Below are positions 3,877-60,715 of a stretch of DNA of 64,000 bases, one piece after another. Position 1 is the first letter of the stretch; the number at the start of each line of letters is the position of its first letter. Source of the stretch: a virus. Taxonomy: Duplodnaviria > Caudoviricetes. Under the pieces are notes generated by a model, which was not told the origin of the DNA, searched no databases, and worked only from the letters and a program-made list of their open reading frames with translations. The stretch lies in the IMG/VR virus record IMGVR_UViG_2751185783_000001, positions 32,001-96,000 of that record. One strand, given 5' to 3'. A program made the translations under genes and the position numbers.

Positions 3877-4129
3877 CGGCGCAACGTAGGACGGCCGGGA
3901 GATCAGTTGAAGACCCGGTTCCGGTGATGGATCTGGCACGCCCGGTAAGTCTGCGGCGGGCAGGGTGGTTGCCGTTGCCGGGGTCGCCGCTGAACTCGCC
4001 ACGTCACGAAACGTATCGATGCCGCTACTCAATGTGTGTCGGATCACGGACGCATCACGAAAGACCATCATCACTCCTTCTGCAAACTCGGTCGGAATAC
4101 CTCCACCAGAGAAACCGCCGTAAACCCGG

Positions 4130-6524: not shown

Positions 6525-6625
6525 CCCTGGACAGTTGGACAGTTGAAGTGCGTTTTGGAGGTCGGTCTATCGCACAGGTAAGAAGCTAGGGTCAAAAACG
6601 CTTTCAACTGTCCAACTGTCCAGGG
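6525..6625. repeat. Perfect 23-bp inverted repeat, candidate replication origin
   Basis: CCCTGGACAGTTGGACAGTTGAA (6525-6547) and its exact reverse complement (6603-6625) flank an AT-richer spacer just downstream of the helicase. Confidence 0.75.
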
Positions 6626-8103: not shown

Positions 8104-8534
8104 AGGTCATCTTGCGGATCCTCATCCCAGGGCACCGGGCCGCCGGTGTACGCGCCGATCCGTGGGATGCGTGAGGCGGCGTCTGCGGCTTGCCGGCGGT
8201 TGAGCTTTTTGACCCCGCGCATGGTTGCTTCGGCGCTGAACGACCCGGTGTAGGTGTACATGGCGGCGATGTTCGCCAGCGCGTGTTCGTCACGCTGGCC
8301 GTCCTCGTAGCCCAGGTCGTAGCCCCAGCCCATGAAGATGCGGGTGAGCCAAGCGACCTGGTCGCGGTTGAAGGTCTCCTGGGTGAGGAGTGCGGCGGCA
8401 ACCCGTTCAGCTTTTGCTGCGGGGGTGTCCCCAGGTGGGTCTGTGTCGGTTACCGTCAAGGGAGTCTCCTGCGTAGTCGCGTACGTGGGCGTGACGAATC
8501 GGCCGGGGTGCTCGAACACCTCGGCCGTTGTCAT
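8088..8534 (-). CDS. Hypothetical protein
   Basis: Coupled ORF (ATGA) between the HTH and helicase genes. Confidence 0.55.
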   Translation of the reverse strand: MTTAEVFEHPGRFVTPTYATTQETPLTVTDTDPPGDTPAAKAERVAAALLTQETFNRDQVAWLTRIFMGWGYDLGYEDGQRDEHALANIAAMYTYTGSFSAEATMRGVKKLNRRQAADAASRIPRIGAYTGGPVPWDEDPQDDLWWAA

Positions 8535-8809
8535 GTCTGGGTGTCGACGGGGATGTTGAACCCGACGGCCGAAGCGAGCCGCTCGAGCTGCTCGCGGTAG
8601 CGAATGGCGATCTCTGTACCGGGCTGCCCGCCACGTTCGTAGTAGGCGATTGATCCGTGGCTGACCCGAATCTCGCGGGCAAGGCGGCGAAGGCTGACGT
8701 TCGCGGCGTCCCTGATTGCGCGGCGGATATGGGGTGCGGGGAGCCGGGTGAGGGTGACTTCCTCGGCGAGGGTGAGCGCCCTGATGGGCGGAGTGATGGT
8801 GTCGGTCAT
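8531..8809 (-). CDS. Cro/XRE-type HTH protein
   Basis: RRAIRDAANVSLRRLAREIRVSHGSIAYYERGGQP. Confidence 0.8.
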   Translation of the reverse strand: MTDTITPPIRALTLAEEVTLTRLPAPHIRRAIRDAANVSLRRLAREIRVSHGSIAYYERGGQPGTEIAIRYREQLERLASAVGFNIPVDTQT

Positions 8810-8879
8810 AGGGCCGATCGTATAAGACGCGGCGTCAATCGCCTAGCGATTGACAAAGAGTCGTGCTAGCTTCATTCCC
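8810..8879. promoter_or_regulatory. Divergent promoter region with palindromic operator
   Basis: GTCAATCGC-CTA-GCGATTGAC (8834-8854). A -10-like hexamer lies 7 nt before each ATG (TAGCTT on plus, TACGAT on minus), suggesting leaderless starts. Confidence 0.6.
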
Positions 8880-10421
8880 ATGCCCCTGACAGTGACCGCC
8901 TACCAGGCACCCGACACCGGCCCCACCACACAGCCCGTGCCGGCCACCGTGGAGACCAGCTGGTTCGAGCGCGCCCTGAACGCGTTCACCGACGGCCCCG
9001 CAACCACCCTCACCGCCGCCCTGCTCTCCGCACTCATCGCCGGACTCGGCGTCTACTTCTTCACCCGCCGCCCCGGCAAAAACGACTTCAGCAAGCAGCT
9101 CATGTACATCCCGCTGCTCCTCGTCAACGGCGCCGCCGTCTACGGACAGGTCGCCTTCTTCTACGAGACCGTCGCCCCCACCGCCTGGGCCGTCCCCGGC
9201 AAAATCCTCCTCGCCGTCGTCATCGCCCTCGCCATCGAATCCATCTCGATCTACGTCGGCTGGCACGCCCACGACGCGCTCATCAACAAACTCGGCCACA
9301 CCGCCGCCCGCCTGCGCCGCGCCTCCTACGGCATCGCCGGACTCGTCGCCGCCATCAACTACGCCCACTTCGCCGACTTCTCCGACCGCACCGGTAACCG
9401 CCTCGGCCTCAACGCCGCATCCGTCGCGTTCGGCCTGCTCTCCCTGATCAGCCCCTGGCTGTGGGGACTGCACTCCCGTCGGCTCAAGAACCTGCAACTC
9501 GCCAAGGAAGGCGTCATCGACGCCACCGGCGCCGTGTTCTCCGGCGAACGCGTTCGCTCCTTCCCGCTGCGCTCCTACCTCGCCCGGCGCTGGTCCATCG
9601 ACCGGTACATCACCGACCCGCGGCAGGCGTGGCGCGGCTACAACCACGAACTGCGGATGCGGTGGGCCGCCGACGTCGACCAGCCCGGCTGGTGGCTGCG
9701 CATCAACCCGGCCGCCAGGGTCAAGCAGCTCGCCGAAACCCTCACCGGGCAGAAGCAGCTGTCGTGGGCGATCGCCCTGCACGCCGAAACCCTCACCGGT
9801 GAACTCACCTCCACCCGCGCCGCGGTCGGTGCCGCCGAACGAAACGCCGCCGCGCAGACCGCCCGGGTTACCGCCCTCACCGAGGAACGGGACACCCTCA
9901 CCGGTGAGCTTGAGACGGCCCGCGCCGACATCGAAGACCTCACCGACCAGTTGACCCAGGCGACCTCCGACATCCAGTCCGCGCGCCACGAAATGGCCCT
10001 CACCGTTGAGGCCCGCGACGACCGGATCCGGGAGTTGGAGAAGACCCTTACCGACACCGTCGACAGGCTTACCGGTGAGAACGCTGACGCTCTCCGTAAG
10101 GCGCAGGCGGAGTACACCTCGAAGCTGGCGATCGCCCGCGCCGAGGCTCGGGTGCCGCGCCTCGACGACCGTCGCGGTAAGGCGTCCCCGGTGACCTCGC
10201 CGGCCTCCACCGGTAGGGCCTCACTGACCGATGAAGACGCTGTTCAGAAGATGCTTACCGAGCAGTCCGACCCGAGTTTCGAGTGGTCGAAGAACGCCGT
10301 CCGGGAGCTTCTCGGTGTGGGGTTCGGTAGGGCCGAGAAGCTCATCCCGATGTGGCTTACCGCCGCCCGTGAGAACGCCTCCGGTAAGCCGTCCGGTGGG
10401 GTTGTGGCGGTGAACCAGTGA
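8880..10421 (+). CDS. Multi-pass membrane protein with coiled coil and C-terminal HTH (spread/SpdB-like)
   Basis: Several N-terminal hydrophobic helices, a heptad region, and the HTH-like tail WSKNAVRELLGVGFGRAEKL. Confidence 0.65.
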   Translation: MPLTVTAYQAPDTGPTTQPVPATVETSWFERALNAFTDGPATTLTAALLSALIAGLGVYFFTRRPGKNDFSKQLMYIPLLLVNGAAVYGQVAFFYETVAPTAWAVPGKILLAVVIALAIESISIYVGWHAHDALINKLGHTAARLRRASYGIAGLVAAINYAHFADFSDRTGNRLGLNAASVAFGLLSLISPWLWGLHSRRLKNLQLAKEGVIDATGAVFSGERVRSFPLRSYLARRWSIDRYITDPRQAWRGYNHELRMRWAADVDQPGWWLRINPAARVKQLAETLTGQKQLSWAIALHAETLTGELTSTRAAVGAAERNAAAQTARVTALTEERDTLTGELETARADIEDLTDQLTQATSDIQSARHEMALTVEARDDRIRELEKTLTDTVDRLTGENADALRKAQAEYTSKLAIARAEARVPRLDDRRGKASPVTSPASTGRASLTDEDAVQKMLTEQSDPSFEWSKNAVRELLGVGFGRAEKLIPMWLTAARENASGKPSGGVVAVNQ

Positions 10422-10683
10422 CCCGTCTCCGGGCCGCTCACCGGTTGCTTGCGGTGGGGGCTATCGGTGCGGGGCTCGTCGTCTTGCGCGATGGGTTCAC
10501 CGGTGACCTCACCGCCCACCCGGCCGCCGTCTTGATCTGGGCGGTGTCGACCGTCGGCGTGGGGCTTACCGCCCGCGCGATGCGCCGGACTGCTTACCGC
10601 AACACCCACCACCAGACCCCCAAGGAGAACTGACATGACCGAACCGATCGACACCACCGCCACCGCCGAGGTGACCCTCACCG
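9741..10683. repeat. Dispersed intragenic array of CTYACCG / CGGTRAG
   Basis: 15 forward and 4 reverse exact copies counted by hand, including the palindrome CTCACCGGTGAG (9897) and near-palindrome CTTACCGGTGAG (10068). Confidence 0.75.
10418..10633 (+). CDS. Small two-TM membrane protein
   Basis: GTGA-coupled; two hydrophobic segments. Confidence 0.55.
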   Translation: MTRLRAAHRLLAVGAIGAGLVVLRDGFTGDLTAHPAAVLIWAVSTVGVGLTARAMRRTAYRNTHHQTPKEN

Positions 10684-11574: not shown

Positions 11575-12468
11575 ATGACCGAGTGGCTCAACGCCCACTA
11601 CCTGCAACTCGCCGCCATTGCCGTCGGGTTCCTGCTCCGCTGGGGAGCAGGGCAGTTCCTCGCCAACGCCACCAAGACCGGCAAAGGCGGGGCCCCTCGC
11701 AACGGCCAGGACGGCGGCGGAAAGAAGTCCCGCTGGGACAAGACCCGCATCACCAAGTTCGTTGCCCTCGCCTTCTACTTCGCGTCGGGCTGCCTGTTCG
11801 CGTTCGGCGCCTACCCGGCCGCACAGTGGGTCGTGTCCTGGGGTGGCGGGCTCGGCTCCTGGGTGTCCGTCATCTTCGGTGTTCTCACCCTCGCGGCGGG
11901 CTGGCACTCCCTGCACGGACTCGTCGGCCTCGTCCACGACATGACCGACGGCACCCCCGACGACGAAGCGTTCAAAGCCGCGTTCCTCGTCCCGACGACC
12001 ATCCCGCTCGGCTGGGCCGCCCTAGTCGGCCTGTTCACCAACCCGCGGGGTGCCGCAACCGGCGTGGCAGTGCTGGCCGTATCGGTGGTGACCGCCCTCT
12101 ACGCCCACAAGATCCTGAAGAAGACCCACGCCGCGCAGGGCCACTACAAGCTGTGGATGTGGTTCTCCACGATCATCTGCTGGTTCGTCGGGTTCGCCCA
12201 CATCCCCGCCCTCATCTACCTCAACGACTTCGCCGGCGCGCACCTGCCCGAAGGCGTCGCCTGGCTGTTGCGGATCGTCGTCGTCGCGTCCGGGGTGCTG
12301 TTCGCGATGGTCGGCCTCGGTGACGTGCTCCGTGACTGGACCCCGGAGAAGTGGTCGCAGTGGGCGGCCATGTACAGCACCCCGATCTTCTCGGTCCTCA
12401 GTGTCGCCGTGGCCATGGCCACGGCCAGCGCCGAAACCGGCCTGACCACGATCTTCGCGGCGTTCTGA
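11575..12468 (+). CDS. Polytopic membrane protein with internal repeat
   Basis: About 8 hydrophobic helices; the motifs DMTDGTPD and DVLRDWTPE recur. Confidence 0.7.
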   Translation: MTEWLNAHYLQLAAIAVGFLLRWGAGQFLANATKTGKGGAPRNGQDGGGKKSRWDKTRITKFVALAFYFASGCLFAFGAYPAAQWVVSWGGGLGSWVSVIFGVLTLAAGWHSLHGLVGLVHDMTDGTPDDEAFKAAFLVPTTIPLGWAALVGLFTNPRGAATGVAVLAVSVVTALYAHKILKKTHAAQGHYKLWMWFSTIICWFVGFAHIPALIYLNDFAGAHLPEGVAWLLRIVVVASGVLFAMVGLGDVLRDWTPEKWSQWAAMYSTPIFSVLSVAVAMATASAETGLTTIFAAF

Positions 12469-13917: not shown

Positions 13918-16827
13918 ATGACCATGCCTGTAGCCCCGACCCGACCGCCCGCCCCGAAGGGTGCCCTGCCCGCCGGTATCGTGCTGTCCCGCTACTGGAG
14001 GGAATCACCCGGCGGGCCGTTGACCAAACACGACCACGACCGGCCGGTCGACGAGGACACCGACGAGCCGGTCGGACTGTGGTGGATGTGCCCCGCCGCC
14101 GCCACCTGCAAGACCGGCGAGTGGGTGTTCCGCACCGCCGAAGACAAGCCGGGCCGGCCGAAGAAGAAGTTCTGCGCCGAACACGGCACGGAACTGATGC
14201 CGGGCCGCGCCGAACCGGACGACGACAACCCGAAGCAGGCCGCCCGGAACTGGCTACAGCAGCGCCTGACCGAGAAGGCCACCGCCGCGAAGCAGGCCAC
14301 CCGTGACGCCGCCCAGCAGCGCATCGGCGCGCTCCGGGCGGCCGGACGAGACGAAGCGGACCGGCTGCGCCGGGACCTGCGCGAACACGTTCCGTCCGCC
14401 GCGGTGTCGTTCGGCGCGCTGGTTGCCGACTGGGCGCTGCTGTACGAACTCGACGCGCTGCCCACCTACGCCACCGGTGCGGGCCTGGCAGTCGGCGGGA
14501 CGCTGCTCGCCTACTGGGCGGTGTACGTCGGTGAGCTGGTGTGGGCCCGCCGGATGGGCTACACGATCCGGGAGTTGCCGGCGTCGGTGCGGTCCCGCGC
14601 GCGTTCCCGGGCGCGGTGGATCGCCGCGGGGGTTCTGTCGACGGGGGTGTGGCTGCTGATCGCGGAGACGATCGGCGCCGACCTGGGCAACGCGTGGGGT
14701 GTGGTGGCGAACATGATGGCCGCCGTGATGATCGGCGTCGTCAACTACAACCCGTGGCAGGCGATGGTCGAACGCCGCAAGGCCGAAGCCCGTGCCCGGG
14801 TGGAGGCCGCGGAGGAAGCGGCCCGGGCGGAGGAGGAACGCCTCACGGCCGAGGCTGCCGAACGAGACCGGCGCCGCATGGCCGCCGAAGAAGCCGCCCG
14901 TGTTGCGGAGGAAGCCGCCCAGACGGAGGCCCGCAAGATTGTGACCGTCACCGACGACACGGTCACCGCGGGCCGTAAGTTCGCCGAACGCTGGGAGAAG
15001 GTCGCCGCCGACGCGAAGGCCCGCAACATGGGCCCCGGCTTCGAGATCTGGCGCACCGCCGTGGTGCCGGAGCAGACCCGCAAGCTCACCGCCGTTGTCG
15101 GCGGCGAGACCGTGGTGATCGGCCACGAGTTCCTGATCCGTGCCGAACCCGGCGTGCTGGCCCCGCGAAACGGGATGAACGTGTCGCCGTTCTTGCAGAT
15201 GAAGACGTGGCTGTCGTCGATGCTCGAACTCGACGACGGCATGCTTGACCTTGCCTACCAGCCGAAGCGCCTCGACGACGGCAAGACCGACACCGAAGTG
15301 CTGATCAACCACGGGCTGGTGACCCTGTTCGACACCCACCCGCTCGGTGAGGCCGTCAAACACCCCGGCCCGTCGGGCGTGTACACCGACGCGAAGGGCG
15401 CCCGGTGGGGGTTCGCCGGCCGGGACCTGCGCGGCAACCCGGTCTACCGGAGCCGGTGGACGCCCGGGCAGGCCGGTGGTGGTGTGCGGGTGGGTGTGAC
15501 CGGCATGGGCAAGTCGGTGGTGACGCAGGTCGGCGCCTACAACGATCTGCTCCTCGGCATCCTGCCGATCATCCACGATGCGGGTAAGAACGCCATGGAC
15601 TTCGTGGACTTCTACGGCATCATCCCGGTGGGTCACACCATCGAACACCGGGAGATCATCCGGGAGTCGTTGTGGCACGAGATGAAACGACGCCAGGCGT
15701 GGATCAACACGCAGACCGCCGTCGGTCTGGGTGGCATGGAAGTCACCGCCGACCCCACCTGGGATCCGGTCCGTGGCGGCCCGCCGATCCGGTGCACGTG
15801 GGAGGAGTTCCACATGCACATGTCCGACCCGAAGTTCATTCAGTACCTCGGTGCGCAGGTCCGCCTTCAGCGGGCCACCGCCATCATGGCCGAAGGCGCC
15901 TCCCAGGGGTCGGGCCTGGCGGACTGGGGTGACCAGCAGATGAAAGAGCAGATGACCGAAATCTCGCTGGAGATGATGCGGGTCTCCGACCACACCGCGA
16001 GGCTCGCCGGCTACCAGGGCGGGCTGATGCCGTCCACGCTGCCGTCGCTGCCCGGCATGATGGTCAGCCAGGTACTGAAGGGAGATCCGGTCGCCTACCG
16101 GTCGGCGTTCATGCCCCGCGACCCGAGTAACCCCGAGTCGCTGATCTACCGGCTGAAGCGGCCCAACGGCACCCCCGAAGGCGAACAGATCGTGTTCGCC
16201 CCGCAGCTGCCGCCGGAGACCATCGCCGTGTTCAAGGAGCATGGACTGATGGACCTGTGGGAGAAAGGCAAGACCAAGTCTGGTCGAGAGCAGCTTCAGT
16301 CCGAAGCCGACCCGGTCGAGTCGACGGTCATGCCCGACATGCTCGAGGCGATCCTCGGCGGGCAGCCCACCCCGAAGCCGCGGCTGCGCGCCGATGAGGT
16401 CGTCTTGGGCCTGCTGAAGAACGAGGACGACAACGGGCGCGGCGGACTCACCCAGCAGCAGATGCTCGCGTCGCCGTGGTGGGCGCAGATCGAGGGGGAG
16501 TGGACGAAGAACGCCGGCATCCCCTCACACACCACGATCGGCCGGGCCTGCAAGAACCTGTCCGGGCTGGAATCCCCGCTGATCGGCTCCGACGAGGGGA
16601 CCCCCGCCCGCTGGTCGCTGCTGCCCGCAGGGTCGGCACGCGGGGAGCAGGCGTTGACGCTGCTGCGGTCAGCCGGCGTACTCGGCAAGCAGGCCCAATC
16701 CCAGACGCGGGCGTCTGGGATGGACATCGCAGGCCTGGAACGGCAGGCGATGCTCGAGGCCGAACAGGCAGCCCTGATTCAGGAACTGGTGCGGGAAGCT
16801 GCCGGGCTGACAGGACCGGGGCAGTGA
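13918..16827 (+). CDS. TraB/FtsK-SpoIIIE-like membrane ATPase (putative conjugative DNA translocase)
   Basis: N-terminal TMs, coiled coil, Walker A GVTGMGKS, Walker B-like CTWEEFH, PGM motif, C-terminal wHTH-like region. Confidence 0.75.
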   Translation: MTMPVAPTRPPAPKGALPAGIVLSRYWRESPGGPLTKHDHDRPVDEDTDEPVGLWWMCPAAATCKTGEWVFRTAEDKPGRPKKKFCAEHGTELMPGRAEPDDDNPKQAARNWLQQRLTEKATAAKQATRDAAQQRIGALRAAGRDEADRLRRDLREHVPSAAVSFGALVADWALLYELDALPTYATGAGLAVGGTLLAYWAVYVGELVWARRMGYTIRELPASVRSRARSRARWIAAGVLSTGVWLLIAETIGADLGNAWGVVANMMAAVMIGVVNYNPWQAMVERRKAEARARVEAAEEAARAEEERLTAEAAERDRRRMAAEEAARVAEEAAQTEARKIVTVTDDTVTAGRKFAERWEKVAADAKARNMGPGFEIWRTAVVPEQTRKLTAVVGGETVVIGHEFLIRAEPGVLAPRNGMNVSPFLQMKTWLSSMLELDDGMLDLAYQPKRLDDGKTDTEVLINHGLVTLFDTHPLGEAVKHPGPSGVYTDAKGARWGFAGRDLRGNPVYRSRWTPGQAGGGVRVGVTGMGKSVVTQVGAYNDLLLGILPIIHDAGKNAMDFVDFYGIIPVGHTIEHREIIRESLWHEMKRRQAWINTQTAVGLGGMEVTADPTWDPVRGGPPIRCTWEEFHMHMSDPKFIQYLGAQVRLQRATAIMAEGASQGSGLADWGDQQMKEQMTEISLEMMRVSDHTARLAGYQGGLMPSTLPSLPGMMVSQVLKGDPVAYRSAFMPRDPSNPESLIYRLKRPNGTPEGEQIVFAPQLPPETIAVFKEHGLMDLWEKGKTKSGREQLQSEADPVESTVMPDMLEAILGGQPTPKPRLRADEVVLGLLKNEDDNGRGGLTQQQMLASPWWAQIEGEWTKNAGIPSHTTIGRACKNLSGLESPLIGSDEGTPARWSLLPAGSARGEQALTLLRSAGVLGKQAQSQTRASGMDIAGLERQAMLEAEQAALIQELVREAAGLTGPGQ

Positions 16828-21857: not shown

Positions 21858-22646
21858 GTGAGTTCCCGCGAGGGAACCAACCGCAAGGTGGTGGAACACC
21901 AAGCGCACCGGGGCTGGACGCCTTACGAGGAGGCTTCCGATGGTTATTTTGTCATGCCCGCACTCTGTCCGCGTGCCTACGGGGGCAGCGGCGTGAAGCG
22001 GCTGTTCGACCTCGACAACGAAGAGATCCCGTTCATTCGGCGCTGGAACGCGCTCACCGCGGTTCTGCTGGTCGAGCCTTCCGTCAAGCTCGTCGCCCGC
22101 CTCGCCATGGACTTCGCCGACTTCGACGACGGCGCGTCGTGCTTCCCCAGCATCGAGATGATGACCCGCGAATCCGGGCTCAGTGACCGAACTGTCCGGA
22201 ATGGCTGGGCCGTTCTTCGGGGACTCGGCATGGCCGTCCGGGTGTCCCGGGGCGGCTCGTATCGCGGACATGCCGACGAGTACCAGTTGCAGATTCCCGA
22301 CAACTGGCGAACATTGCCCCTGCTCGGACCTCACCGCCGCAAGTTCACGTGCCCCGGCTGCGGGAACCTGTTCAACCCGGACGCCCACAGCATCCTCGCG
22401 GACAGGCTCAAGGGCAGCGCCAAGCCGGACGGCAGGCCGCGCGCGAAGGCGGGCGACGGCGTCGCGTGGATCATTGGGCGATTGGCGTTCTGCTCGTGGC
22501 CGAGCAGCACCGGCCGCAAGGGAAGCCGGGCCTGCACTGACGCGTGGGATGTGAAGCGCCGAGAGAAGGGCGAAAAGGTCTGGGATCAGACCGACGCCTC
22601 GGGGAAGTGGGCAGTGTTCTGGGAGGCGCAAGGTGATCCCTGGTAG
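21858..22646 (+). CDS. wHTH replication-initiator-like protein with Cys motif (start uncertain)
   Basis: CFPSIEMMTRESGLSDRTVRNGWAVLRGLG...EYQL (HTH_36-type); CPGC; followed directly by repeats. Confidence 0.7.
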   Translation: MSSREGTNRKVVEHQAHRGWTPYEEASDGYFVMPALCPRAYGGSGVKRLFDLDNEEIPFIRRWNALTAVLLVEPSVKLVARLAMDFADFDDGASCFPSIEMMTRESGLSDRTVRNGWAVLRGLGMAVRVSRGGSYRGHADEYQLQIPDNWRTLPLLGPHRRKFTCPGCGNLFNPDAHSILADRLKGSAKPDGRPRAKAGDGVAWIIGRLAFCSWPSSTGRKGSRACTDAWDVKRREKGEKVWDQTDASGKWAVFWEAQGDPW

Positions 22647-22649
22647 GGC

Positions 22650-22750
22650 GGTAACGGTTACCGGATGGTGGTAACGGTTACCGGTAGAGGGTGGTAACGG
22701 TTACCGGACCCCCTGGCAACGGTTACCGCACCCGGTGGTAACCGTTGCCG
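22650..22750. repeat. Iteron-like array of five 13-bp quasi-palindromes
   Basis: GGTAACGGTTACC at 22650, 22670, 22693; GGCAACGGTTACC at 22715; inverted GGTAACCGTTGCC at 22737; period 20-23 bp. Confidence 0.85.
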
Positions 22751-31286: not shown

Positions 31287-34200
31287 TCACCCCCGCGCCA
31301 TCACCGGTGTCGACCGGGCCGACTGGACCGTGCGGCGGGTGCCCGACAGCATTGCCGCCGCCACGCCGGGCGCCACGTCTCCGATGGCGGAGATGAGCTT
31401 TTCGAGGCGGTCGATGACCTGTTCCATCGTCGGCGCCGGGGTGACGGTTTCGTTGCGGCCGGTCCCGTTGTAGATGGGCGGGGACCAGCCGGGTTGCAGC
31501 CAGCCGCCGGTGTCCATGACGGGGAACTGTGACTGGCCCTTGCCGAATTTCGGCAGGATCGCGCCGAGGCGGGCCGCCCAGTGGTCGTGGGCGTTGCCGC
31601 CCGAAAAATTGTGCTGGTTCCACACTGCCCCGGTGTAGGTGTGCTTCCTGCCGTTGTGCAGGTTGTACTGCTGATACGGGGTGATCAGCTCCTTGGTGAT
31701 GTTGCGGTAGTGGTCGTAGATGTACTTCGCCACGCTCTTGTCCGGCGGCACATCCACGGCCCGGTCTGTGCCGTGATACGACGGGTTGCCGGACAGGGTG
31801 CGGGCGCCCGGCCGGAACCCGGAGATCAGCCGCAGCCCGGGGAACTGCGCGCGCAAGGCCCGCATCATTCCCGCGCTGCCGCCGAACGGCGACGACCCGT
31901 TACCGGGGCCGGACGTGCCCGATGATCCCGGCGCGGCTACGAATCCGGTCACCTTGTCGACCGCGGCGTCCAGGAGCTTGCCCGGGACGGCGGTGACGAG
32001 TTTGCCCCACGGCAAGTCCTTGCCGGGCACCAGGTTGGTGAGGTTCCCGACGAGGGTTTTGATACCGCCGGCGGGGTCAGCCAGCAGACCCTTCGCCCCC
32101 GTGAGGACGTCCGATGCCTTGCCTCTGATCTTCTTCCACAGGTCCCCCAGGCCGTCACCGCTGCCGATGATGCCGCCCGACTTGAACTGGCCAGACATGG
32201 CCCGGCGTACGGCAGGGACGCCGCCAGTACGGGCGGCCTGATTCATCGTGTTGACCCAGTCGGTGCCAACCGCACGCCCAAACTCGGGCCGCATGACCGG
32301 CTCGCCGCCGGACAAGTCGAGGGTGCCGCCGGTCGGCGAGTAGAACCGGTGGACGTCACGGCCCGGGGTGTAGCCGGGCAGAACACCGCCCTTCGCGAAG
32401 CCCTTTGGCAGGGAAATCTTGGCGGCTTCCTTGACCCCGAAGAACTTCGCGATCTTGTTGTAGCCGCCGATCAGTCCGCCGTTCAACACGGTGTTGACCA
32501 CAAAACGGACTGGCTCTTTCGCCACGTCGGTCAACTTCGACCACGCCGTTTTGATCGCCCCGACGCCGGTGGTGAAAGCGTTCGGGATTGTCTTCGTGAC
32601 GAATGTCTGGATCGGGGTGAACACGTTGTTCTTGATGGCCGTCCACACGTCACCCAGGCCGGTACGGATCGCCCCGAATGCCGTGGTCACCTTCGTCTTC
32701 GCGGTGGCGAACGCGTTTGGGATCGTCTCCATCACAAACGTGCGCATCGGCGTGAACACATTCGTTTTGATCGACGTCCACGCCGACGACAGGCTGTTAC
32801 GGATCTCCGTCCAGCGCGCGGACGCCTTCTCCTTGAGCTGCTGGAAGCCGTTCGGGATGGTTACCGTGACGAAGGTCTTCAGCGGGTTGAACACCTGCTG
32901 GACGAGTTGGTTCCAGGCGCCGGTGATGGCCTTGCCCGCGGCGTCGAAGAACCCGCCGATTTTCTTCGCCCAGCTGATCGCGGTGAGGATCCAGCCCTGG
33001 ATGAGGGTGACCCACTTCTCCGCGTCGGTGATCAGTTTGCCCATGGCGGGCAGCCACACATTGACCAGCTTGCCGATGAATTCGCTGGCCATCGCCACCC
33101 ACAGGCGGATCTTGTTCTGGTTCTCGGGGTCGCGCAGCCAACCCAAAACCCGGGTGAGGACGCCTTCGACGCCGCCGAGGAACGACCCGGAGGCTTCCTT
33201 CGACTGCGGGAACAGGATCGCGATGATCTCGCCGAAGATGCGGAAGACCAGCCCGCCGATCCGGAAGATCTGATCCAGCGTCTTCGCGGCCCCGGCCATG
33301 AACGAGTCGAGCTTGCCGGACTCGTCCGCGCTCTTCATCCACGCGCCGAACTTGGTGAAGATCCCGCCGATCAGATCGCCGATGACCTGAAGGACAGGCT
33401 TCGCGCTGTCGCCCAGCCGGGCCAGCCCGTCGAACAGGCCCGGCAACCCGGCACCGATCCGGGACATCATCTCGCCGAACCCGTCGACTGCGCCCTTCAC
33501 GTTCTTGATGAATCCGGCCTCGCCGAACTTCTTGAATAGGCCGTCGCCGATGATGTTCAGCCGGTCCGCGAGCCCACCCAACGACTCCTTCAGGTGCGGA
33601 ATCCACGTGTCCGCAAGCTTCTGCACCTGCCCGGACACGCCATCGAGGAGCCGGTCCTGCACGAATTTGCGCAGCTCCCCGAACGGCTCCCGCAAACCGA
33701 ACAGAGTCTTCACCAGGTCGCGGGCGTTCGGGCTCAGCTCCGCCATCTGCTGGTTGAGTTTCTCCAGCGCGGACCCGCCGGCGAGCCCGGCCTGAGTGGA
33801 CGCCTGCCCCAGTGCCCGCTGCGCCGCCGTCACCGCCTGCGACGCCTGCGCCAGCTGGTAGGCACCCTGACGCTGCTGGTTCTGCCTCGAACGGCGCGCC
33901 TCATCCAGCGCACGCTCAGCCGCCTCGACTTTCTGCGCCCCGGCGACCCGGGCATCCTCCGCGGCCTGCTGCGCCTTACGGACCTCCGCCTCAGCGGCTG
34001 CCACACCGCGGCGGGCATCCGCCACACCCTTGTCGGCCTGCGCGATGCGTTCCCGTGCCCGCGTGACCTCGTCGGACCCCTCGACGCCCTTCTTGACGGC
34101 GTCCTGCTGTTCCGCCGCGAGGCGTTTGCCGCGGACGGCGAGGTCGTTGAGTTGGGCGACCTGCCGTTCGTAGGTGAGTTGCGCTTGGGCCTTCTGCTCG

Positions 34201-45465: not shown

Positions 45466-45644
45466 CTCTGCTCTCCGCCGGTGCTGCCAGGGACCGGGCC
45501 AGCCGCCGGTTCGGCGAGGACCGGCGGCTGGTAGCCGCCGTCCATCCGGTCTACGAGTGAGCTGGCAGGTGGAACAGCGGTGACAGTGGCCGGCACCTCG
45601 TCGGTTGCCCACCTCTGGGCAAGGGAAGCCGGTTTCGCTTTCAT
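45462..45644 (-). CDS. Microprotein
   Basis: ATGA overlap with the ART gene stop; GAGG RBS. Confidence 0.4.
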   Translation of the reverse strand: MKAKPASLAQRWATDEVPATVTAVPPASSLVDRMDGGYQPPVLAEPAAGPVPGSTGGEQR

Positions 45645-48600
45645 GCGATCACCTCGATGTCTAGGACCCGGATACCGTTTTCGTCGACTCCGCGGTCGGC
45701 TACCACGCGACGACGCTGGCCGCGGGCGGTCAGGATTTCGGCTTCGTGCTGGAAATCAAGCCATACCTCGTCGGGACGCCCCATCGGGGATACCTGGACG
45801 CCGGGAGAGCCCTTGGGCAGCAAGATCCTCATCATGACCGGCGGCATGTCGGGTTCTTCCATCTGGGCGACTTGGGCGAACTGGCTGGCGACTCGGACGT
45901 CGGCGGTGGTGGAGGCGAAAGCCGAATCCTCCCACTCCATCCCGGTGACGTCGGGCCCCCAGGCGTCACCGAAGATTTTCCCCGGGTCTTTGATCGTCCG
46001 GTAGACCAGTACGTCTTTCGGTAGCGGCGAGGCAGCCATCGCATCGTCGATCTTCTTCACCACATCGGTGATCTCAGGACCGCCATCAGCGGTACCACGC
46101 AGGTAGGAGTTGATCTCGGAGAACGCCTCGCCCTGGTATGTGGCCAGTGCATCCCCGATTACAGCGCTCTGGGATTCCGACCAGCCGGAAGGCACAGAAA
46201 TGGGGATCCCGGACCCGAACCTGACGGGAACAGAATCAAGGCCGCCCTGACCTTGTGCAGCCTTCTTCGCTGCGGCATCCCAACCAGAGGCTGTCATCCC
46301 ACCGGACACAACGCCACCCGGCGCTGGGCCGGCAGCGGGAGTTTCCTGCCCGGCGGGTACCGCGGTACCGTTTCCACCAGCCCGGGCAGGGGCGGGCGCG
46401 GCTTCCTGTTTGCCCGCCTGCTGTCCAGCGCCGGCCTTCGGCAACACGCGGACGTCGATCTGGCGGATCCCGTCGACCACACCGCGGTCGGTTACGACCT
46501 CGATCTCGTGGCCGCGGTCGATGAGGATCTCGGCCTCGGACGGATCACGTGGGTCGTAGAGGTCGATCGCCTTGGTGCCGGCAGGGACGGCCACCCGCAT
46601 CTGGACGGGGTCTTCGCCGCGGGAGAACGGGGCGATCGCGCCGGTGTCGGTGGACGTCGACAGGAAGCCGTCCTCGCGCCAGCGCATGCCGGTCAGGTCG
46701 CCGTCGAGGCGGTCGCCGAACATGGCCCGGGACTGCCGGATCCCGCGCAGGACGGTGATGTCAGCGTTCAATTCCGAGCCGGTCATCGCGTCGTCGATCC
46801 CGGCGATCGCCTTCTGGGTCTGGGCGTTGCCGGGGCCGCCGGTCCGCAGCGCGCCGTTGATCCGTTTGAAGTCGGTGCCGTTGCGGGAGTCCTGGTAGCC
46901 CTCGAGGCCTGCGCGCTGGGTGTCGGTCAGATCGTTGCCGGGCCGGTGCGGGCCTTTCGGGATGGCTGCGGAGACTGCGGCCCGGTCGATCTCGGCGGAA
47001 GCCGGCGCCGGGACGGCCGGTTGCGCCGGGGTGGGCAGACCGGTACCCGCCGTCGTCTCGCTGGGCGCAGGCCCGGACGGGGTCTGTGGCGCCGTCTGCG
47101 GGGCGGCCCCCTCCCCGGCGGACAGGCCCTGCTGGCGCTTGTCGCGGATGACGTCCGGTTTGAGGTCGTCGCGCCGGTCCGGGTCCGCGTACTGGGCCTC
47201 GAGGTCCGCGACCGCACGGGCGACCGCCGTGTCGATCTCCAGTTTGCCTTCGCGGGACTCGTGCCGCCGGTTGTGGGCCTTCTGCCTGACCTGATCGGCC
47301 AGACGACGGCCGGACATCCCGCCCTTGTCCCATTTGGCCAGAGCCTGCGACAGGGCGTCGGTCTCCATGCCGTCACGGCGGACCAGGGGGATCGCCCACA
47401 GCTGGTCCATCAGCTTGCGCAGGGCGTCCGGGGTCGAGTCCGGGACCTCCGGTGCCGGGCCGTCGGGCGCGTCGAGACCGATGACCGCCAGTTGCACGGC
47501 CCGCTTACCGGGCCCGTCTGGCAGCCGGCCGGCGAGCATCTTGAGCTGGTCGAGCTGGGCCTGGGCGGGCAGACGTCCCATGACGGTGTCGGTTGCCATC
47601 CGGCCAAGGTGTTCGGCCAGCGGGAGGCCGTCGACGTCGAGCATCCGGTCGGCGCCGAGCATGCCGACGGCCTGGCCGATCTCGCCGTCGGCGTGGAACG
47701 CGACCGGGCTGTCGGGGTCGGCGCCCCATTTGTTGTCCGACAGCGGCTGGGTGCTCATGACCCGCGGCAGCGGGCCACCCGGCTGGGCCGTCGGCGCGTC
47801 GGGCACGTTTGCGGTTGTCGGGGTCTCGGGTGCGAGGGCGGAGGAGGGCGGCGCCGCGGGGAGCTGGTTCTCCGGGTTTTCGCTATTCTGCACGGCGGCC
47901 GGTTCAGCGGCTGGTTCGGCCGCTGGACCGGAGGTGTCCCCGCCGTTGCCGCGCCGGTCCGGTTCGTTGGTGGAGATCAGGTGCTTGGGCTCAGGGCCGA
48001 TGACGATCGCCGCGTCGAGTTCGGCCTGCGACAACTCGCCGCGGGCGGGGTCCGGCTCGAGGCGGATCCGGCGTGCCCGGTCGAGGCGGCGCAGCTCGGC
48101 GTCGGCGTCTTCGCGGGACATGCCGGGCAGCTGGTCGCGGACCTTCGCCAACAGGACCAGGTCGCCGGGCTTGCGGCCGTCGGCGGTCAGGGCATCGTGG
48201 ATGGCGTCCATGATCTGGTCGGCGGGCGTGGCGGGCTCGGCCCCACCAGCCGGGCCAGGGACAGAGACGTCCCTACGGTTCTCGTCAGCGACGCCGGACG
48301 GCTTCGACACCGGGTCGGCCTTGGCGGCGCCGGATCCCTGGGAATCCGCACCGCGGTCCAGGCCTGGTGCCTGAGGGGTGCCCGCTTCCCGGTCGTTGTT
48401 GCCTTCGGTACCCATCTCGTCGGCGACCAGCGCATCCACGAGCTGGGACTTACGCAGCCTGCCCGGCCTGAGCCCACGCTCACGCATCATGGCCTGCAAC
48501 TCGGGCACCCGGTTCTTCATCAGATCCGCACGGACCTGATCGGCGCCTTCCGGCTGCTCGCTACTGGCGTCGTCCGCTGCGGGCGCCTTCTCCGCGGGCG

Positions 48601-49336
48601 GGGGAGCCGTCTTCGCCGGCGCGGAAGGCCGCGCCGTGGGCGGAGCCTGCTCGGCCGGTGCGTCAGCGGACGGGCCGTCCAGCGCCTTCTCGTCGCCCTT
48701 GCCTGCCTCCGCGCCCTTCTTCGACAGCACGGCTACGTGCATGTCGTAGCCGCCCGCACTGTTCGCCTCGACTTTGGTGACGACCATGTCCAAGTCCCGG
48801 CCGAGGATCACTTCGCCGGTCTCCGGGTTCACCGCGGCGCGCGTACCGGCCGGGGCAGAAATACGCATCCGCACGTCGCCTTTGGTGGCGCGGACCGTAC
48901 CGACGGAGGTGGGCGCGTAGGCGGCGTCACGAACCCGCATGCCGACCAGGCCGTCCGGACCGGCCGGACCGAACGCGGCGACCGGCACCCGCCGGGACAG
49001 CATCACGTCGTCGGGCAGATCCACCATCGCGGCGTCCATGGCCGTGACCGACGGGTCGCCGGTTTTGCCCGCACGCAGCGCCTTGTGGGTGTCGACGTAC
49101 CCGCCCGCGACATACGAGGCGACGGCCTGGCGGTGGGCGGCGGGGGCGATCGGCTCGAGGTAGGCGGGTGCCTTGGTCCCGACGATGCCCTTCTTCGGCC
49201 GCAGCCCGGAGGTGATCTGTTCGGCCAGGCCGATCTCGGCCCGGCTGGCGGGCGCGGACCGGGACCGGGTGAACCGGCCGTTCTTGTCCCGCGGGTGCAG
49301 CGACGGGATCCACTTCTTGACGGCCACGATCACCAC
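45641..49336 (-). CDS. Head-region protein with VIP2-like ADP-ribosyltransferase domains (two intact, one degenerate) and SAP-like motif
   Basis: VLRG..FLSTS..SEAEIL and VYRT..FASTT..HEAEIL; N-terminal HPRDKNGRF. Confidence 0.85.
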   Translation of the reverse strand: MVIVAVKKWIPSLHPRDKNGRFTRSRSAPASRAEIGLAEQITSGLRPKKGIVGTKAPAYLEPIAPAAHRQAVASYVAGGYVDTHKALRAGKTGDPSVTAMDAAMVDLPDDVMLSRRVPVAAFGPAGPDGLVGMRVRDAAYAPTSVGTVRATKGDVRMRISAPAGTRAAVNPETGEVILGRDLDMVVTKVEANSAGGYDMHVAVLSKKGAEAGKGDEKALDGPSADAPAEQAPPTARPSAPAKTAPPPAEKAPAADDASSEQPEGADQVRADLMKNRVPELQAMMRERGLRPGRLRKSQLVDALVADEMGTEGNNDREAGTPQAPGLDRGADSQGSGAAKADPVSKPSGVADENRRDVSVPGPAGGAEPATPADQIMDAIHDALTADGRKPGDLVLLAKVRDQLPGMSREDADAELRRLDRARRIRLEPDPARGELSQAELDAAIVIGPEPKHLISTNEPDRRGNGGDTSGPAAEPAAEPAAVQNSENPENQLPAAPPSSALAPETPTTANVPDAPTAQPGGPLPRVMSTQPLSDNKWGADPDSPVAFHADGEIGQAVGMLGADRMLDVDGLPLAEHLGRMATDTVMGRLPAQAQLDQLKMLAGRLPDGPGKRAVQLAVIGLDAPDGPAPEVPDSTPDALRKLMDQLWAIPLVRRDGMETDALSQALAKWDKGGMSGRRLADQVRQKAHNRRHESREGKLEIDTAVARAVADLEAQYADPDRRDDLKPDVIRDKRQQGLSAGEGAAPQTAPQTPSGPAPSETTAGTGLPTPAQPAVPAPASAEIDRAAVSAAIPKGPHRPGNDLTDTQRAGLEGYQDSRNGTDFKRINGALRTGGPGNAQTQKAIAGIDDAMTGSELNADITVLRGIRQSRAMFGDRLDGDLTGMRWREDGFLSTSTDTGAIAPFSRGEDPVQMRVAVPAGTKAIDLYDPRDPSEAEILIDRGHEIEVVTDRGVVDGIRQIDVRVLPKAGAGQQAGKQEAAPAPARAGGNGTAVPAGQETPAAGPAPGGVVSGGMTASGWDAAAKKAAQGQGGLDSVPVRFGSGIPISVPSGWSESQSAVIGDALATYQGEAFSEINSYLRGTADGGPEITDVVKKIDDAMAASPLPKDVLVYRTIKDPGKIFGDAWGPDVTGMEWEDSAFASTTADVRVASQFAQVAQMEEPDMPPVMMRILLPKGSPGVQVSPMGRPDEVWLDFQHEAEILTARGQRRRVVADRGVDENGIRVLDIEVIA

Positions 49337-58283: not shown

Positions 58284-59304
58284 GTTGTGCCTCCTCAAGG
58301 CGTCGGTACTTCTCGTACAGGGATTGGTTGTCGGCGACTCGTTGGTCAGCGGGGGACCGGACTTCGTTGCGCCGTCCGTTGTCGTCGATTCGGGCTAGGG
58401 CGTTGCCGGGCTCGTTGATGGGCATGGAGCCGCGGACCCCGGTGCGCTCTTCGAAGCGTTCCTGGTCTGAGCGCATCCAGTTGCGCCACGCCTTGTCCCA
58501 GTCCTTCTTGAGTTCCTTGCCTTTTTGGCCGTCAGCGAAGTACTCGATGAACTTGTCCGTGGCGAAGCGCCCGACATTCGGGGTTTCTTTTCTGGCCCAC
58601 GCCATCATTTCTTCGGATACCTGCCAGCCGGCGGGGAGGGGCAGGTTCTCTTTGGTGATGATGCGACTGAGGCGCTTCCGACCCCTGGTGGCTCCGCCCG
58701 CTGGTTTGTTTTCGGAGTCAGGCTGCCGCTGTTCCGGTACCACAAACAGCGCATCACCGGTGTCGACACCATCGCGCGCGCTCTCCTCCGAAGGAGGAGA
58801 AGGTTCAGGTTGGTACACATGGTTCAGTTCTTTGTGTCCCGCTGTGGCACTAGCCTGGTCCCGCTCTGGCACTAGCCCTAGTCCCGCTGTGGCACTAGTC
58901 CCGCTCTGGGACCAGTCCTCAAGTTGGTCCCGCTCCGGGACTAGTCCCGCTGTGGCACTAGCCTCAGGCTCGTTCTCGGCGGCGCTGGGCGACTCTTCTG
59001 TGGCGACCGAAGAGGGGATGGTGAGCAGATAGCAGGTCTTCTCCTTGTTCTTTTGCGCCGCCTTCTTGGTCGGCACCGTTCGTTTTATCCAGCCATTACT
59101 CTCGGCCGAATTGAGAGAGCGGACAACGGTTGAACGGCCCAGCCCCGTGAAATTTGCCAGCTCGGTCAGGCTGGGTTGAAAACGGTCCGGAATGAGTCCC
59201 GTTTCCGGCTCCACCAACGTCACCAAGGTCAGAAGGGTGTGCCGCTCTGGAGCGGGGAGGCCCGACCTGCGGATCGCCCGCATAAGAGTCCAGATATCGG
59301 GCAC
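58270..59304 (-). CDS. Phage replication initiator (wHTH, lambda-O-like architecture)
   Basis: PSLTELANFTGLGRSTV; repeat-coded linker; C-terminal KFIEYF...DWDKAWRNW. Confidence 0.8.
   Translation of the reverse strand: MPDIWTLMRAIRRSGLPAPERHTLLTLVTLVEPETGLIPDRFQPSLTELANFTGLGRSTVVRSLNSAESNGWIKRTVPTKKAAQKNKEKTCYLLTIPSSVATEESPSAAENEPEASATAGLVPERDQLEDWSQSGTSATAGLGLVPERDQASATAGHKELNHVYQPEPSPPSEESARDGVDTGDALFVVPEQRQPDSENKPAGGATRGRKRLSRIITKENLPLPAGWQVSEEMMAWARKETPNVGRFATDKFIEYFADGQKGKELKKDWDKAWRNWMRSDQERFEERTGVRGSMPINEPGNALARIDDNGRRNEVRSPADQRVADNQSLYEKYRRLEEAQRGQS
58836..58961. repeat. Six 18-bp iterons inside the initiator gene (phage origin)
   Basis: GTCCCGCT(G/C)(T/C)GG(C/G)AC(T/C)AG at 58836, 58858, 58881, 58898, 58927, 58944. 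Confidence 0.85.
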
Positions 59305-59866: not shown

Positions 59867-59949
59867 TGTGTACGTACATCAACCAGTGAAGCCTATCGCG
59901 ATGTGTACGTACACACCAGTGAAAGCCGATCTCTTTCGTGTACGGACAC
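59867..59949. promoter_or_regulatory. Three GTGTACG(T/G)ACA operators between divergent RHH genes
   Basis: Copies near 59867, 59902 and 59938 (35-bp period); the first two extend with ACCAGTGAA. Confidence 0.75.
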
Positions 59950-59965
59950 GCCGTACCTTTGACCA

Positions 59966-60160
59966 GTGACTACCGCCAACGAACGCCGCAAGACGGTGCG
60001 CCGGCAGATAGCCCTCGCCGATGCGCTCTGGGAACGCCTCGGCCGTCTGGTCGGCGACCGAGGGCGTTCCGAGGTCATCCGTGCGCTCGTGGCCTGGTAT
60101 CTGCGCGAGCCCGGCGCGAAGCTCCCGGAGCGCCCGCCGCGTCAGGATCCGCCCGCCTGA
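59966..60160 (+). CDS. Ribbon-helix-helix-like regulator
   Basis: RQIALADALWERLG...RSEVIRALVAWYLREPGAKLPERP. Confidence 0.7.
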   Translation: MTTANERRKTVRRQIALADALWERLGRLVGDRGRSEVIRALVAWYLREPGAKLPERPPRQDPPA

Positions 60161-60392
60161 GCCCGCCCCGGCTGGTCACCACCCGCGTTCCGTCGGCGAA
60201 CTCGAGCACCGCGGACCCGGACATCCGCTTGTTCCCGTCCGGGTCTTTGCCGCCCTGGTCGCGCACCACCACCTGGCAGCGCTGGCCCGTCCGGTCGATG
60301 CCGTCGCCGAACCACGGCGTCTTCACCGCGCCCGTGCCCGGGAACTCCCAGGTGCGCCACCGCCACGTCCACACGTACGGGAAGTCGATCAC
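60075..60392 (-). CDS. Hypothetical protein
   Basis: GTGA-coupled; VIDFPYVWTWRW...VLEFADG. Confidence 0.45.
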   Translation of the reverse strand: MIDFPYVWTWRWRTWEFPGTGAVKTPWFGDGIDRTGQRCQVVVRDQGGKDPDGNKRMSGSAVLEFADGTRVVTSRGGLRRADPDAAGAPGASRRARADTRPRAHG

Positions 60393-60715
60393 GGCAGCCA
60401 CTTCCGCAGTTCGTTGATCGACCTCCGGGCAACCTTCTGGGCTACGTACTCCCGGCCAACACGCTCCCACTCCCGCCGGTCGTCATCCTGTCCGTGAAGG
60501 CCGCGATCGATCCGTAGGTTTTCGAGTACCTCGCCGCATTCGATCAGCGCAGCCCGTGCCGCGCAGAGGGCACCGAAGGCAACCACGTTGAACGCTGGGT
60601 CCTCCGGCTCGGTCATGTGACTGCCGGCGAGCCGCAGGGCGTCTTCGATGTCCTGCTCGGTGATCAGTCCAACGGGCAGCGGCTCCCGAGCCGGACCCGG
60701 CCAGCGTCCGGTCAC
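60389..60715 (-). CDS. Hypothetical protein
   Basis: GTGA-coupled ORF. Confidence 0.45.
   Translation of the reverse strand: MTGRWPGPAREPLPVGLITEQDIEDALRLAGSHMTEPEDPAFNVVAFGALCAARAALIECGEVLENLRIDRGLHGQDDDRREWERVGREYVAQKVARRSINELRKWLP

Follow-up and report, generated by a model that had tools for sequence, protein, structure and literature searches.

The phage-like element analysed here has a gene for a membrane-anchored protein whose coding sequence contains a dense set of copies of the word CTYACCG, and the question that this locus raises is whether the word serves the DNA, as a set of docking sites for a protein, or simply follows from the protein encoded, and which protein would read it. 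The DNA under study, hereafter the window, is the whole stretch of 64,000 nucleotides at positions 32,001 to 96,000 of the IMG/VR virus record IMGVR_UViG_2751185783_000001. It belongs to a phage-like mobile element of an actinomycete and encodes a Mu-type portal (33–36% identical to actinophage portals), terminase, capsid, a MuF-like protein with an ADP-ribosyltransferase domain, PolA and a D5-type helicase. The gene that bears the array, referred to below as the host gene, sits between the replication genes (PolA and D5 helicase) and a transfer module; it is the first of a plus-strand block of small membrane-protein genes, and the last gene of this block encodes a TraB-like pump. The original prediction, made from the letters of the window, had offered two mechanisms, namely that the protein binds its own gene and anchors the element to the membrane for spreading or segregation, or that the array is an intragenic clt (a locus acting in cis for transfer). 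At a rough probability of one half, we favour a self-addressed membrane tether within a TraB-type module, in which the array would provide candidate docking sites for the helix-turn-helix (HTH) domain of the host protein itself.

The CTYACCG array in coding DNA

The 15 forward copies of CTYACCG reported between 9741 and 10677 and the four copies of the reverse form CGGTRAG reported at 9902, 10073, 10175 and 10382 were all recovered. The window contains 61 copies on both strands, whereas dinucleotide shuffles gave an expectation of 21.9; 19 of the 61 fall within 943 bp. When the whole 10.3-Mb assembly was counted, the density was found to be 19 per kb in the array and 0.69 per kb in the genome, and the array was the sole such cluster, as every other 1-kb stretch had seven copies or fewer. 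The CTTACCG form has a genome-wide density of 0.037 per kb, but the array has eight copies of it within 550 bp. An unbiased k-mer scan of the window returned CGGTAAG/CTTACCG, GCTTACC and CGGTGAG/CTCACCG as its top words, all of them located at 9.7–10.6 kb. The palindromes that some copies were said to form are real; there are two of the type CTYACCGGTGAG, of which CTCACCGGTGAG (9897–9908) is perfect and CTTACCGGTGAG (10068–10079) matches at 11 of 12 positions. Because Tandem Repeats Finder (TRF) showed no tandem repeat in the window array, its copies are short words scattered through otherwise non-repetitive DNA. Related loci, found with either the host protein or the pump as query, were fetched and are numbered with the prefix L, and the window's own module is denoted W. 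An origin of the array by tandem repetition or slippage was rejected, as TRF was empty for both W and L005; the array of L040 was partly periodic by TRF. A Chi-like or restriction-related role was also rejected, because the words vary among elements of one host family and are restricted to one kilobase.

The array had been described as independent of the reading frame, which does not hold for most of the window copies. Phase 0, with the reading Leu-Thr-[G/A/D/E/V], accounts for 13 of the 15 forward copies, among them all 10 in the host gene's array part, and only two are in phase 1. These two, at 10437 (GCT CAC CGG) and 10593 (GCT TAC CGC), bear out the reported shift of codon phase in the next gene. 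The Leu falls at heptad position 1 or 4 (a/d) in 7 of the 10 coiled-coil copies, the Leu-Thr dipeptide is enriched 3-fold in the host protein (15 versus 4.8 expected), and the host gene uses ACC for 41 of 44 Thr and CTC or CTT for 37 of 56 Leu. Such in-frame copies would suit an explanation in which the word has no DNA function and comes as a by-product of two things, a coiled coil rich in Leu-Thr and a bias for C-ending codons. The same explanation gains from a codon-preserving shuffle, a check that the original prediction had itself named as one that could refute it, in which most of the excess disappeared and a weak signal was left; permutation of the gene's own synonymous codons gave 8.05 ± 1.55 forward copies as against 11 observed (p = 0.05), and shuffles within local blocks of 60–100 codons, with both strands counted, gave p = 0.05–0.07. 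For both strands together, the own-codon permutation returned p = 0.002. This permutation is a conservative null, because the codon choices possibly imposed by the array are retained in it.

When the protein was held fixed and the codons were drawn from the confident genes of the element, the array part was found to have 14 copies against 2.9 expected, with a maximum of 9 in 5000 draws, and the next gene (71 aa) had four against 0.57. The codon CTT, which was correctly noted to be rare, makes up 4.4% of the Leu codons in the window's confident genes; it accounts for 6 of the 24 Leu codons in the array part versus none of the 32 upstream, and four of the six CTT codons of the host gene lie inside the motif. 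Similarly, Gly is encoded by GGT at 10 of 13 positions in the array part as compared to 1 of 21 upstream (p = 2e-5) and to 13 T-ending codons among the 146 that encode other residues there (p = 1e-7), and CGGT is the reverse complement of the motif core ACCG. As the window alone is weak under the strict shuffle, the case for a DNA-level signal rests on these GGT and CTT anomalies, the reverse-strand copies and the comparison with relatives, which support the earlier suggestion that selection acts on the DNA. The by-product explanation leaves the GGT shift, the reverse-strand copies, the phase-1 copies of the next gene and the 14 copies against 2.9 unexplained. The array may instead reflect dual coding, in which Leu at a or d followed by Thr would be written as CTC/CTT-ACC-G, and Gly written as GGT would supply the reverse half, CGGT.

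Words of the related modules

The host protein has about 20 full-length homologues (42–59% identity) and many N-domain-only homologues from Micromonosporaceae. The original prediction had suggested looking for different motifs in homologues, and the relatives do bear different words at the same place. The CTCACCG word is present 15 times in L002 and 11 times in L006, each having one phase-2 copy (x-TCA-CCG), and L001, which encodes a 58% identical protein, has the window's word five times forward and five times reverse. In L001, CGGTAAGG occurs four times within 232 bp in two phases, twice as GCG GTA AGG, GTA being a minor choice for Val among the genes of the window. Among the more distant homologues, the word in L005 is GCTCCG, with 13 forward and 17 reverse copies in all three phases and a density of 23.9 per kb versus 0.6 per kb in the flanks, and that in L004 is CCTCCG (17 copies). 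The word in L040 is CCGGACA (18 copies, all forward and in all phases). The others are TGACGCA in L046 and L067, CTGCGCA in L047, TGCGTAA in L068, GACGCCA in L065, GTCGCCA in L066, CGGACAG in L042 and CGTCTC in L044 and L059. The forward-to-reverse ratios are 15:4 in W, 14:1 in L002, 18:0 in L040 and 8:0 in L046, and the orientations are mixed in L005, L016 and L042.

The arrays of L001, L004, L005, L040, L046, L047 and L065–L068 lie in the 3′ half of a gene encoding transmembrane (TM) segments and an HTH. The common layout often begins with an Xre gene, followed by a TM-(linker)-HTH gene with the word array at its 3′ end, small membrane-protein genes and the pump; L067 and L068 have arrays without an adjacent Xre gene. 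Among the modules found with the pump as query, all fetched loci with enough upstream sequence keep this layout, except L041 and L054, in which no clear array was seen. At least three unrelated families are represented among the array genes. The modules found with the pump as query include four IMG/VR viral contigs of 97–131 kb, and the contigs of the relatives are about 86–130 kb.

The Leu-Thr dipeptide is enriched only in genes with the CTCACCG word (15 versus 4.8, 12 versus 4.7, 11 versus 3.1 and 12 versus 5.5), and it is not enriched in L004 and L005 (4 versus 4.0 and 5 versus 4.5); therefore, it is the word that shapes the peptide and not the reverse. The absence of this enrichment from homologous coiled coils with another word, the rare-codon copies of L001 and the all-frame, both-strand arrays of the relatives' words are also left unexplained by a by-product of coding. 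Taken with the window data, the comparison of sequences largely refutes that explanation, which we regard as very improbable, and it shows, more clearly than the window does alone, that the array is a real DNA-level feature.

One Actinoplanes liguriensis scaffold of 127.7 kb has two array genes from separate families; it contains L002/L007 with CTCACCG (15 copies) and L040 with CCGGACA (18 copies), and only the L040 array gene adjoins a TraB-like gene. Two different words on one contig would fit private specificities. In Micromonospora loci resembling actinomycete integrative and conjugative elements (AICEs), the strongest array is in the 3′ part of a DUF2637-like gene in L011, L015, L016, L018, L026 and L030, and several kb downstream of that gene in L010, L012, L023 and L032; in L012, the one checked, it directly follows an FtsK_SpoIIIE gene and none is present in the DUF2637-like gene.

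Some further repeats were noticed in these loci. In L065 (3810–4320) and L066 (3832–4638), the word sets a low-complexity linker (…VATEPATEPAV…) with Asp-Ala-Asn and Val/Pro-Ala-Thr units every 4–5 residues. Arrays of CGCACA/ACACTC (9–12 copies) in L003/L008 (1421–2002) and of CACACT (10 copies) in L006 (312–585) lie in or beside an AAA_25 helicase gene upstream of the array gene, and are probably origin iterons separate from the intragenic array.

The candidate readers of the word and the rival explanations

Two encoded proteins could read the word, the host protein and the pump. The 974-aa pump has a Walker A motif (GVTGMGKS) and TM segments at 195–280; collection entry P0121 (969 aa) begins at ATG 13918. 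Its residues 355–974 were modelled with AlphaFold2 (AF2) at a predicted local distance difference test score (pLDDT) of 81, and Foldseek matched the model to the FtsK motor bound to double-stranded DNA (dsDNA) (6t8b; E = 1.9e-12, template modelling score 0.62), with further matches to TcpA and EccC. A helix-helix-helix-strand-strand unit at model residues 476–552 is predicted to be winged-helix-like. No match to the pump was obtained with the models of Pfam, FtsK_SpoIIIE (PF01580) included, PHROG or NCBIfam, by BLASTP against two Micromonospora FtsK/HerA-like proteins or by phmmer against PDB sequences. On the modelled structure, the pump is TraB-like with an FtsK motor fold and starts 3.2 kb downstream of the array end, which supports the earlier placement of the array within a TraB-type transfer or spread module.

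The architecture of the host protein was as originally described, with three or more hydrophobic segments (43–61, 109–127 and 179–197), a coiled coil at approximately 273–430 and a C-terminal HTH-like domain. The AF2 model of its C-terminal 78 aa (pLDDT 77) has helices at 16–26, 36–43 and 47–65 with an HTH-like turn of three residues. The analogous array genes have sub-threshold HTH_23 and HTH_28 matches and clearer HTH signatures than the host protein, and shorter N-domain homologues have HTH Pfam matches. From the model, the C-terminus is a probable HTH domain.

The reader was sought through discordance across the mosaic modules, by comparing the word with the C-part and HTH of the array gene and with the winged helix of the pump. 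W and L001 have the word in common, yet their pumps show only 28% identity overall and 16% in the winged helix. In L046 and L067, which both have TGACGCA, the array-gene C-parts are 73% identical, the HTH helices near-identical and the pump winged helices 48% identical, whereas L046 and L047 have different words and winged helices 69% identical. A putative recognition helix, HTTI(G/M)(R/H)AC, is common to W, L040 and L065, which have three unrelated words. Furthermore, L046 (909–2021) is recombinant inside the array gene; its N-part matches L068 (3792–4925) at 83% identity, and its C-part, array and HTH included, matches L067 (3939–5054) at 73%. In four comparisons, which are indirect and made at the level of sequence, the repeat failed to match the specificity helix of the cognate TraB as it does at clt loci. 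Thus, in the covariation that the original prediction suggested checking, the word goes with the part of the host gene that encodes the HTH, and it does not go with the winged helix of the TraB-like pump. Both of its mechanisms survive, and the discordance tests favour self-binding and disfavour an intragenic clt. Because the word is discordant with the pump winged helix and follows the HTH half, the gene's own HTH is favoured as the candidate reader over the pump winged helix.

In the tether that we favour, the CTYACCG copies would form a cis-acting protein-docking array overprinted on coding DNA, with the C-terminal HTH domain encoded by the array-bearing gene as the likeliest reader. The N-domain would anchor the host protein in the membrane and the HTH would be carried on the coiled-coil stalk. 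Many protein copies on ~19 sites over ~950 bp could keep the element DNA at the membrane, beside the small membrane proteins of the operon and the TraB-like FtsK-type pump, and the purpose may be cell-to-cell or intramycelial spread, segregation, or both, of a phage-plasmid-like element.

Several observations weigh against this tether. The strictest synonymous shuffle leaves a weak excess in the window, and the C-terminal domain of the host protein has no significant structural match by Foldseek or VIA (the best Foldseek match being the FtsK gamma domain at E ~0.9, and VIA Z being 4.7 or less) and no Pfam match. The co-inheritance of word and HTH is partly trivial linkage, as the array is inside that half of the gene, and a few residue changes could retarget a winged helix. 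The helices of group A (RAEKLI) and group B (RIPKLI) differ, yet both go with CTCACCG. The Micromonospora arrays, in the DUF2637-like gene or after the FtsK-family gene as in L012, could possibly be one clt.

An intragenic clt, that is, a loading site made of TraB recognition sequence-type repeats for the TraB-like translocase, read by the C-terminal winged helix of the pump with the host gene being incidental, is unlikely in our judgement but is the rival that deserves most attention. The 974-aa neighbour, with its FtsK motor fold, TM segments and winged-helix-like tail, is of the right kind, and known clt loci are arrays of 7–9-bp repeats bound by TraB or TraA, some of which extend into the tra gene (PMC3583192, PMC4447253). 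A strong bias to one strand, as expected of a directional loader, is seen in many arrays (W, L002, L040 and L046), although those of L005, L016 and L042 are of mixed orientation. The L012 array, which directly follows the FtsK_SpoIIIE gene and spares the DUF2637-like gene, also suits a clt. The word does not, however, track the pump winged helix, being the same at 16% and 48% identity and different at 69%, with three words for nearly one and the same putative recognition helix, and the array is 3.2 kb from the tra gene, in another gene, and 5–10 times longer than the described clt loci.

A different reader or purpose, such as operators for the divergent Xre repressor, a membrane-attached replication origin or organiser (like phi29 p16.7, or with lambda O-like iterons within an initiator gene) or a packaging site, appears improbable, though less so than a by-product of coding. 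The gene does lie between the replication genes and the transfer module, an Xre gene is adjacent in most loci, and the layout of TM segments, coiled coil and probable three-helix DNA-binding domain resembles that of phi29 p16.7. On the other side, L067 and L068 lack an adjacent Xre gene, more typical iteron sets are present elsewhere in the window (22653–22740 and 6530–6613), the terminase gene is 41 kb away from the array, and in the Micromonospora array loci the few open reading frames (ORFs) scanned in the fetched 8.5-kb stretches are not phage structural proteins. Both p16.7 of phi29 and the RacA/ram system of B. subtilis attach DNA to the membrane or pole through a protein that combines an anchoring part, a coiled coil and a small helical domain for DNA binding, a layout that the host protein would share. 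The host protein would differ from p16.7, which binds DNA without sequence specificity, by its sequence-specific word, and from RacA, which is not a membrane protein, has an N-terminal winged HTH and uses specific sites dispersed over hundreds of kb, by its membrane anchoring and probable C-terminal HTH.

The TraB/clt systems of Streptomyces plasmids and AICEs (pSVH1, pJV1 and pWTY27) resemble this module in having in the operon a dsDNA pump of the FtsK type, anchored in the membrane and with a winged helix at its C-terminus (both predicted for the present pump), a cis array of 7–9-bp element-specific repeats and small membrane (Spd-like) genes around it (PMC3583192, PMC4447253). The clustering of the repeat, 19 copies in 943 bp and unique in the genome, is as seen at clt. 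The position differs, since clt is a block of 50–200 bp at the end of tra and the present array consists of ~19 dispersed copies over ~950 bp in a gene 3.2 kb upstream and not at the 3′ end of tra, and its word does not co-vary with the pump winged helix. A precedent which supports the self-docking reading is SpdA (SpdA2 of pIJ101), a spread or stability protein that binds palindromes inside its own gene, where the sites dictate the peptide SRDD/E (PMC4170104); here they would likewise dictate Leu-Thr-Gly/Asp/Glu. SpdA itself is small and soluble, its DNA-binding domain is N-terminal, and it has two to three copies of a conserved 12-bp palindrome, CGTCACGTGACG, found in many plasmids (PMC4170104). 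In contrast, this locus has ~19 copies of a lineage-specific 7-mer and a membrane-anchored protein with a probable C-terminal HTH, so that its word differs from CGTCACGTGACG and its protein architecture from that of a small SpdA.

The host protein is also like SpdB2 of pSVH1 in being a polytopic membrane protein with a coiled coil; SpdB2 is oligomeric, binds dsDNA and works with TraB, and actinophage homologues have been reported (PMC4447253). SpdB2 differs in binding DNA non-specifically with no site array described, and the host protein has no match in the plasmid collection. The combination of phage genes with tra is already known from the Streptomyces plasmid-phages pZL12/phiZL12 and pSLE1, in which a tailed-phage genome is joined to plasmid functions and to a region for conjugal transfer that depends on tra (PMC3583192, PMC4487206). 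The present element differs from them in that tblastn searches with the host protein and the pump against deposited plasmid (72,556) and phage records returned no match.

It is possible, though we say so tentatively and at somewhat less than even odds, that such "self-addressed" membrane tethers form a widespread undescribed class in actinomycete phage-plasmids and AICEs. In this class, an HTH protein would act on a lineage-private array in its own gene, possibly loading in cis during nascent membrane insertion, and present the DNA to a TraB-type pump; the words would be an incompatibility or identity code, with the linker visibly reshaped. If the array is a docking site, it would offer a testable handle on how DNA is chosen and positioned by TraB-type systems and phage-plasmids of mycelial actinomycetes. 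To our knowledge, only a few small Streptomyces plasmids are understood in this respect. The array would also be a clear natural case of dual coding, in which a DNA-binding code sets the composition of the coiled coil or linker (Leu-Thr here, and Ala-Glu, Val-Ala-Thr and Asp-Ala-Asn in relatives), and the lineage-specific words would form a data set for rules of HTH-DNA recognition and could mark classes of uncultured elements of ~100 kb.

Features of the module and other repeats

Table 1. Coordinates of the array and of the genes and sites around it in the window.
Feature	Position	Strand	Basis or remark
CTYACCG/CGGTRAG array	9741..10683	none	15 forward and 4 reverse copies with near-matches; spans the host gene's coiled-coil/HTH-coding part and continues into the two small genes after it
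Example single sites of the array: CTCACCGGTGAG, GCTTACCG			
Xre-type HTH gene, 92 aa, divergent from host gene	8531..8809	-	Pfam HTH_3 1.8e-6, HTH_31 2.4e-6
Palindrome GTCAATCGC-CTA-GCGATTGAC, 21 bp, perfect 9-bp arms	8834..8854	none	In the 70-bp divergent gap between Xre and host genes; read from sequence
Host gene (513 aa) with a polytopic N-domain in the membrane, a coiled coil and a three-helix HTH-like domain at the C-terminus	8880..10421	+	Homologues; segment and model analysis
Small membrane-protein gene, 71 aa	10418..10634	+	Overlaps host-gene stop (GTGA); 4 motif copies, 2 in phase 1
Small gene, 74 aa	10635..10859	+	Last motif copy (10677); same 17-mer in the corresponding gene of L002
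Polytopic membrane protein	11575..12468	+	Conserved in all related modules; shared ...EKWSQWAAMY... segment
Predicted TraB-like dsDNA translocase: three TM segments, coiled coil, FtsK-type motor, C-terminal winged-helix-like domain	13918..16827	+	AF2/Foldseek

The features of the module are given in Table 1. The start of the host gene at ATG 8880 was fixed by the MP... start of its homologues. A small gene is divergent in the same position in L001, L003–L006, L040 and L066, with weak or faint HTH Pfam matches where any were recorded. Judged by its sequence, the palindrome of the divergent gap is probably part of an operator or promoter; the corresponding gap is exactly 68 bp (3932 to 4001) in several homologous loci. 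The DUF2637 label comes only from the source annotation of N-domain homologues (UniRef), and Pfam DUF2637 (PF10935) had no match at E up to 1 in the host protein or in two homologues so named by UniRef. A profile of the host family found only coiled-coil proteins among PDB sequences, and PHROGs and NCBIfam returned only coiled-coil noise for the genes of the module.

Outside the module, a 1231-aa protein adjoining the portal (45641–49336, minus strand) has an ADP-ribosyltransferase exoenzyme domain (PF03496, 1.4e-35) like MuF-fused phage head proteins. Other repeats were also noticed. The sequence AACGGTTAC occurs five times in ~90 bp at 22653–22740, directly after the ORF at 21858–22646, and looks like iterons that belong to a second replicon. 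The gap that separates the PolA gene from the D5-helicase gene (6530–6613) has CAACTGTC/GACAGTTG four times, a possible origin or helicase-loading site. Short-word clusters were seen at 58836–58944, with AGCGGGAC six times and TAGTGCCA four times, and at 59870–60443, with GTACGTA five times. At 21 kb upstream of the window, still on its contig (G000:C269:116351-116532), GCAATCACG occurs 10 times in 180 bp.

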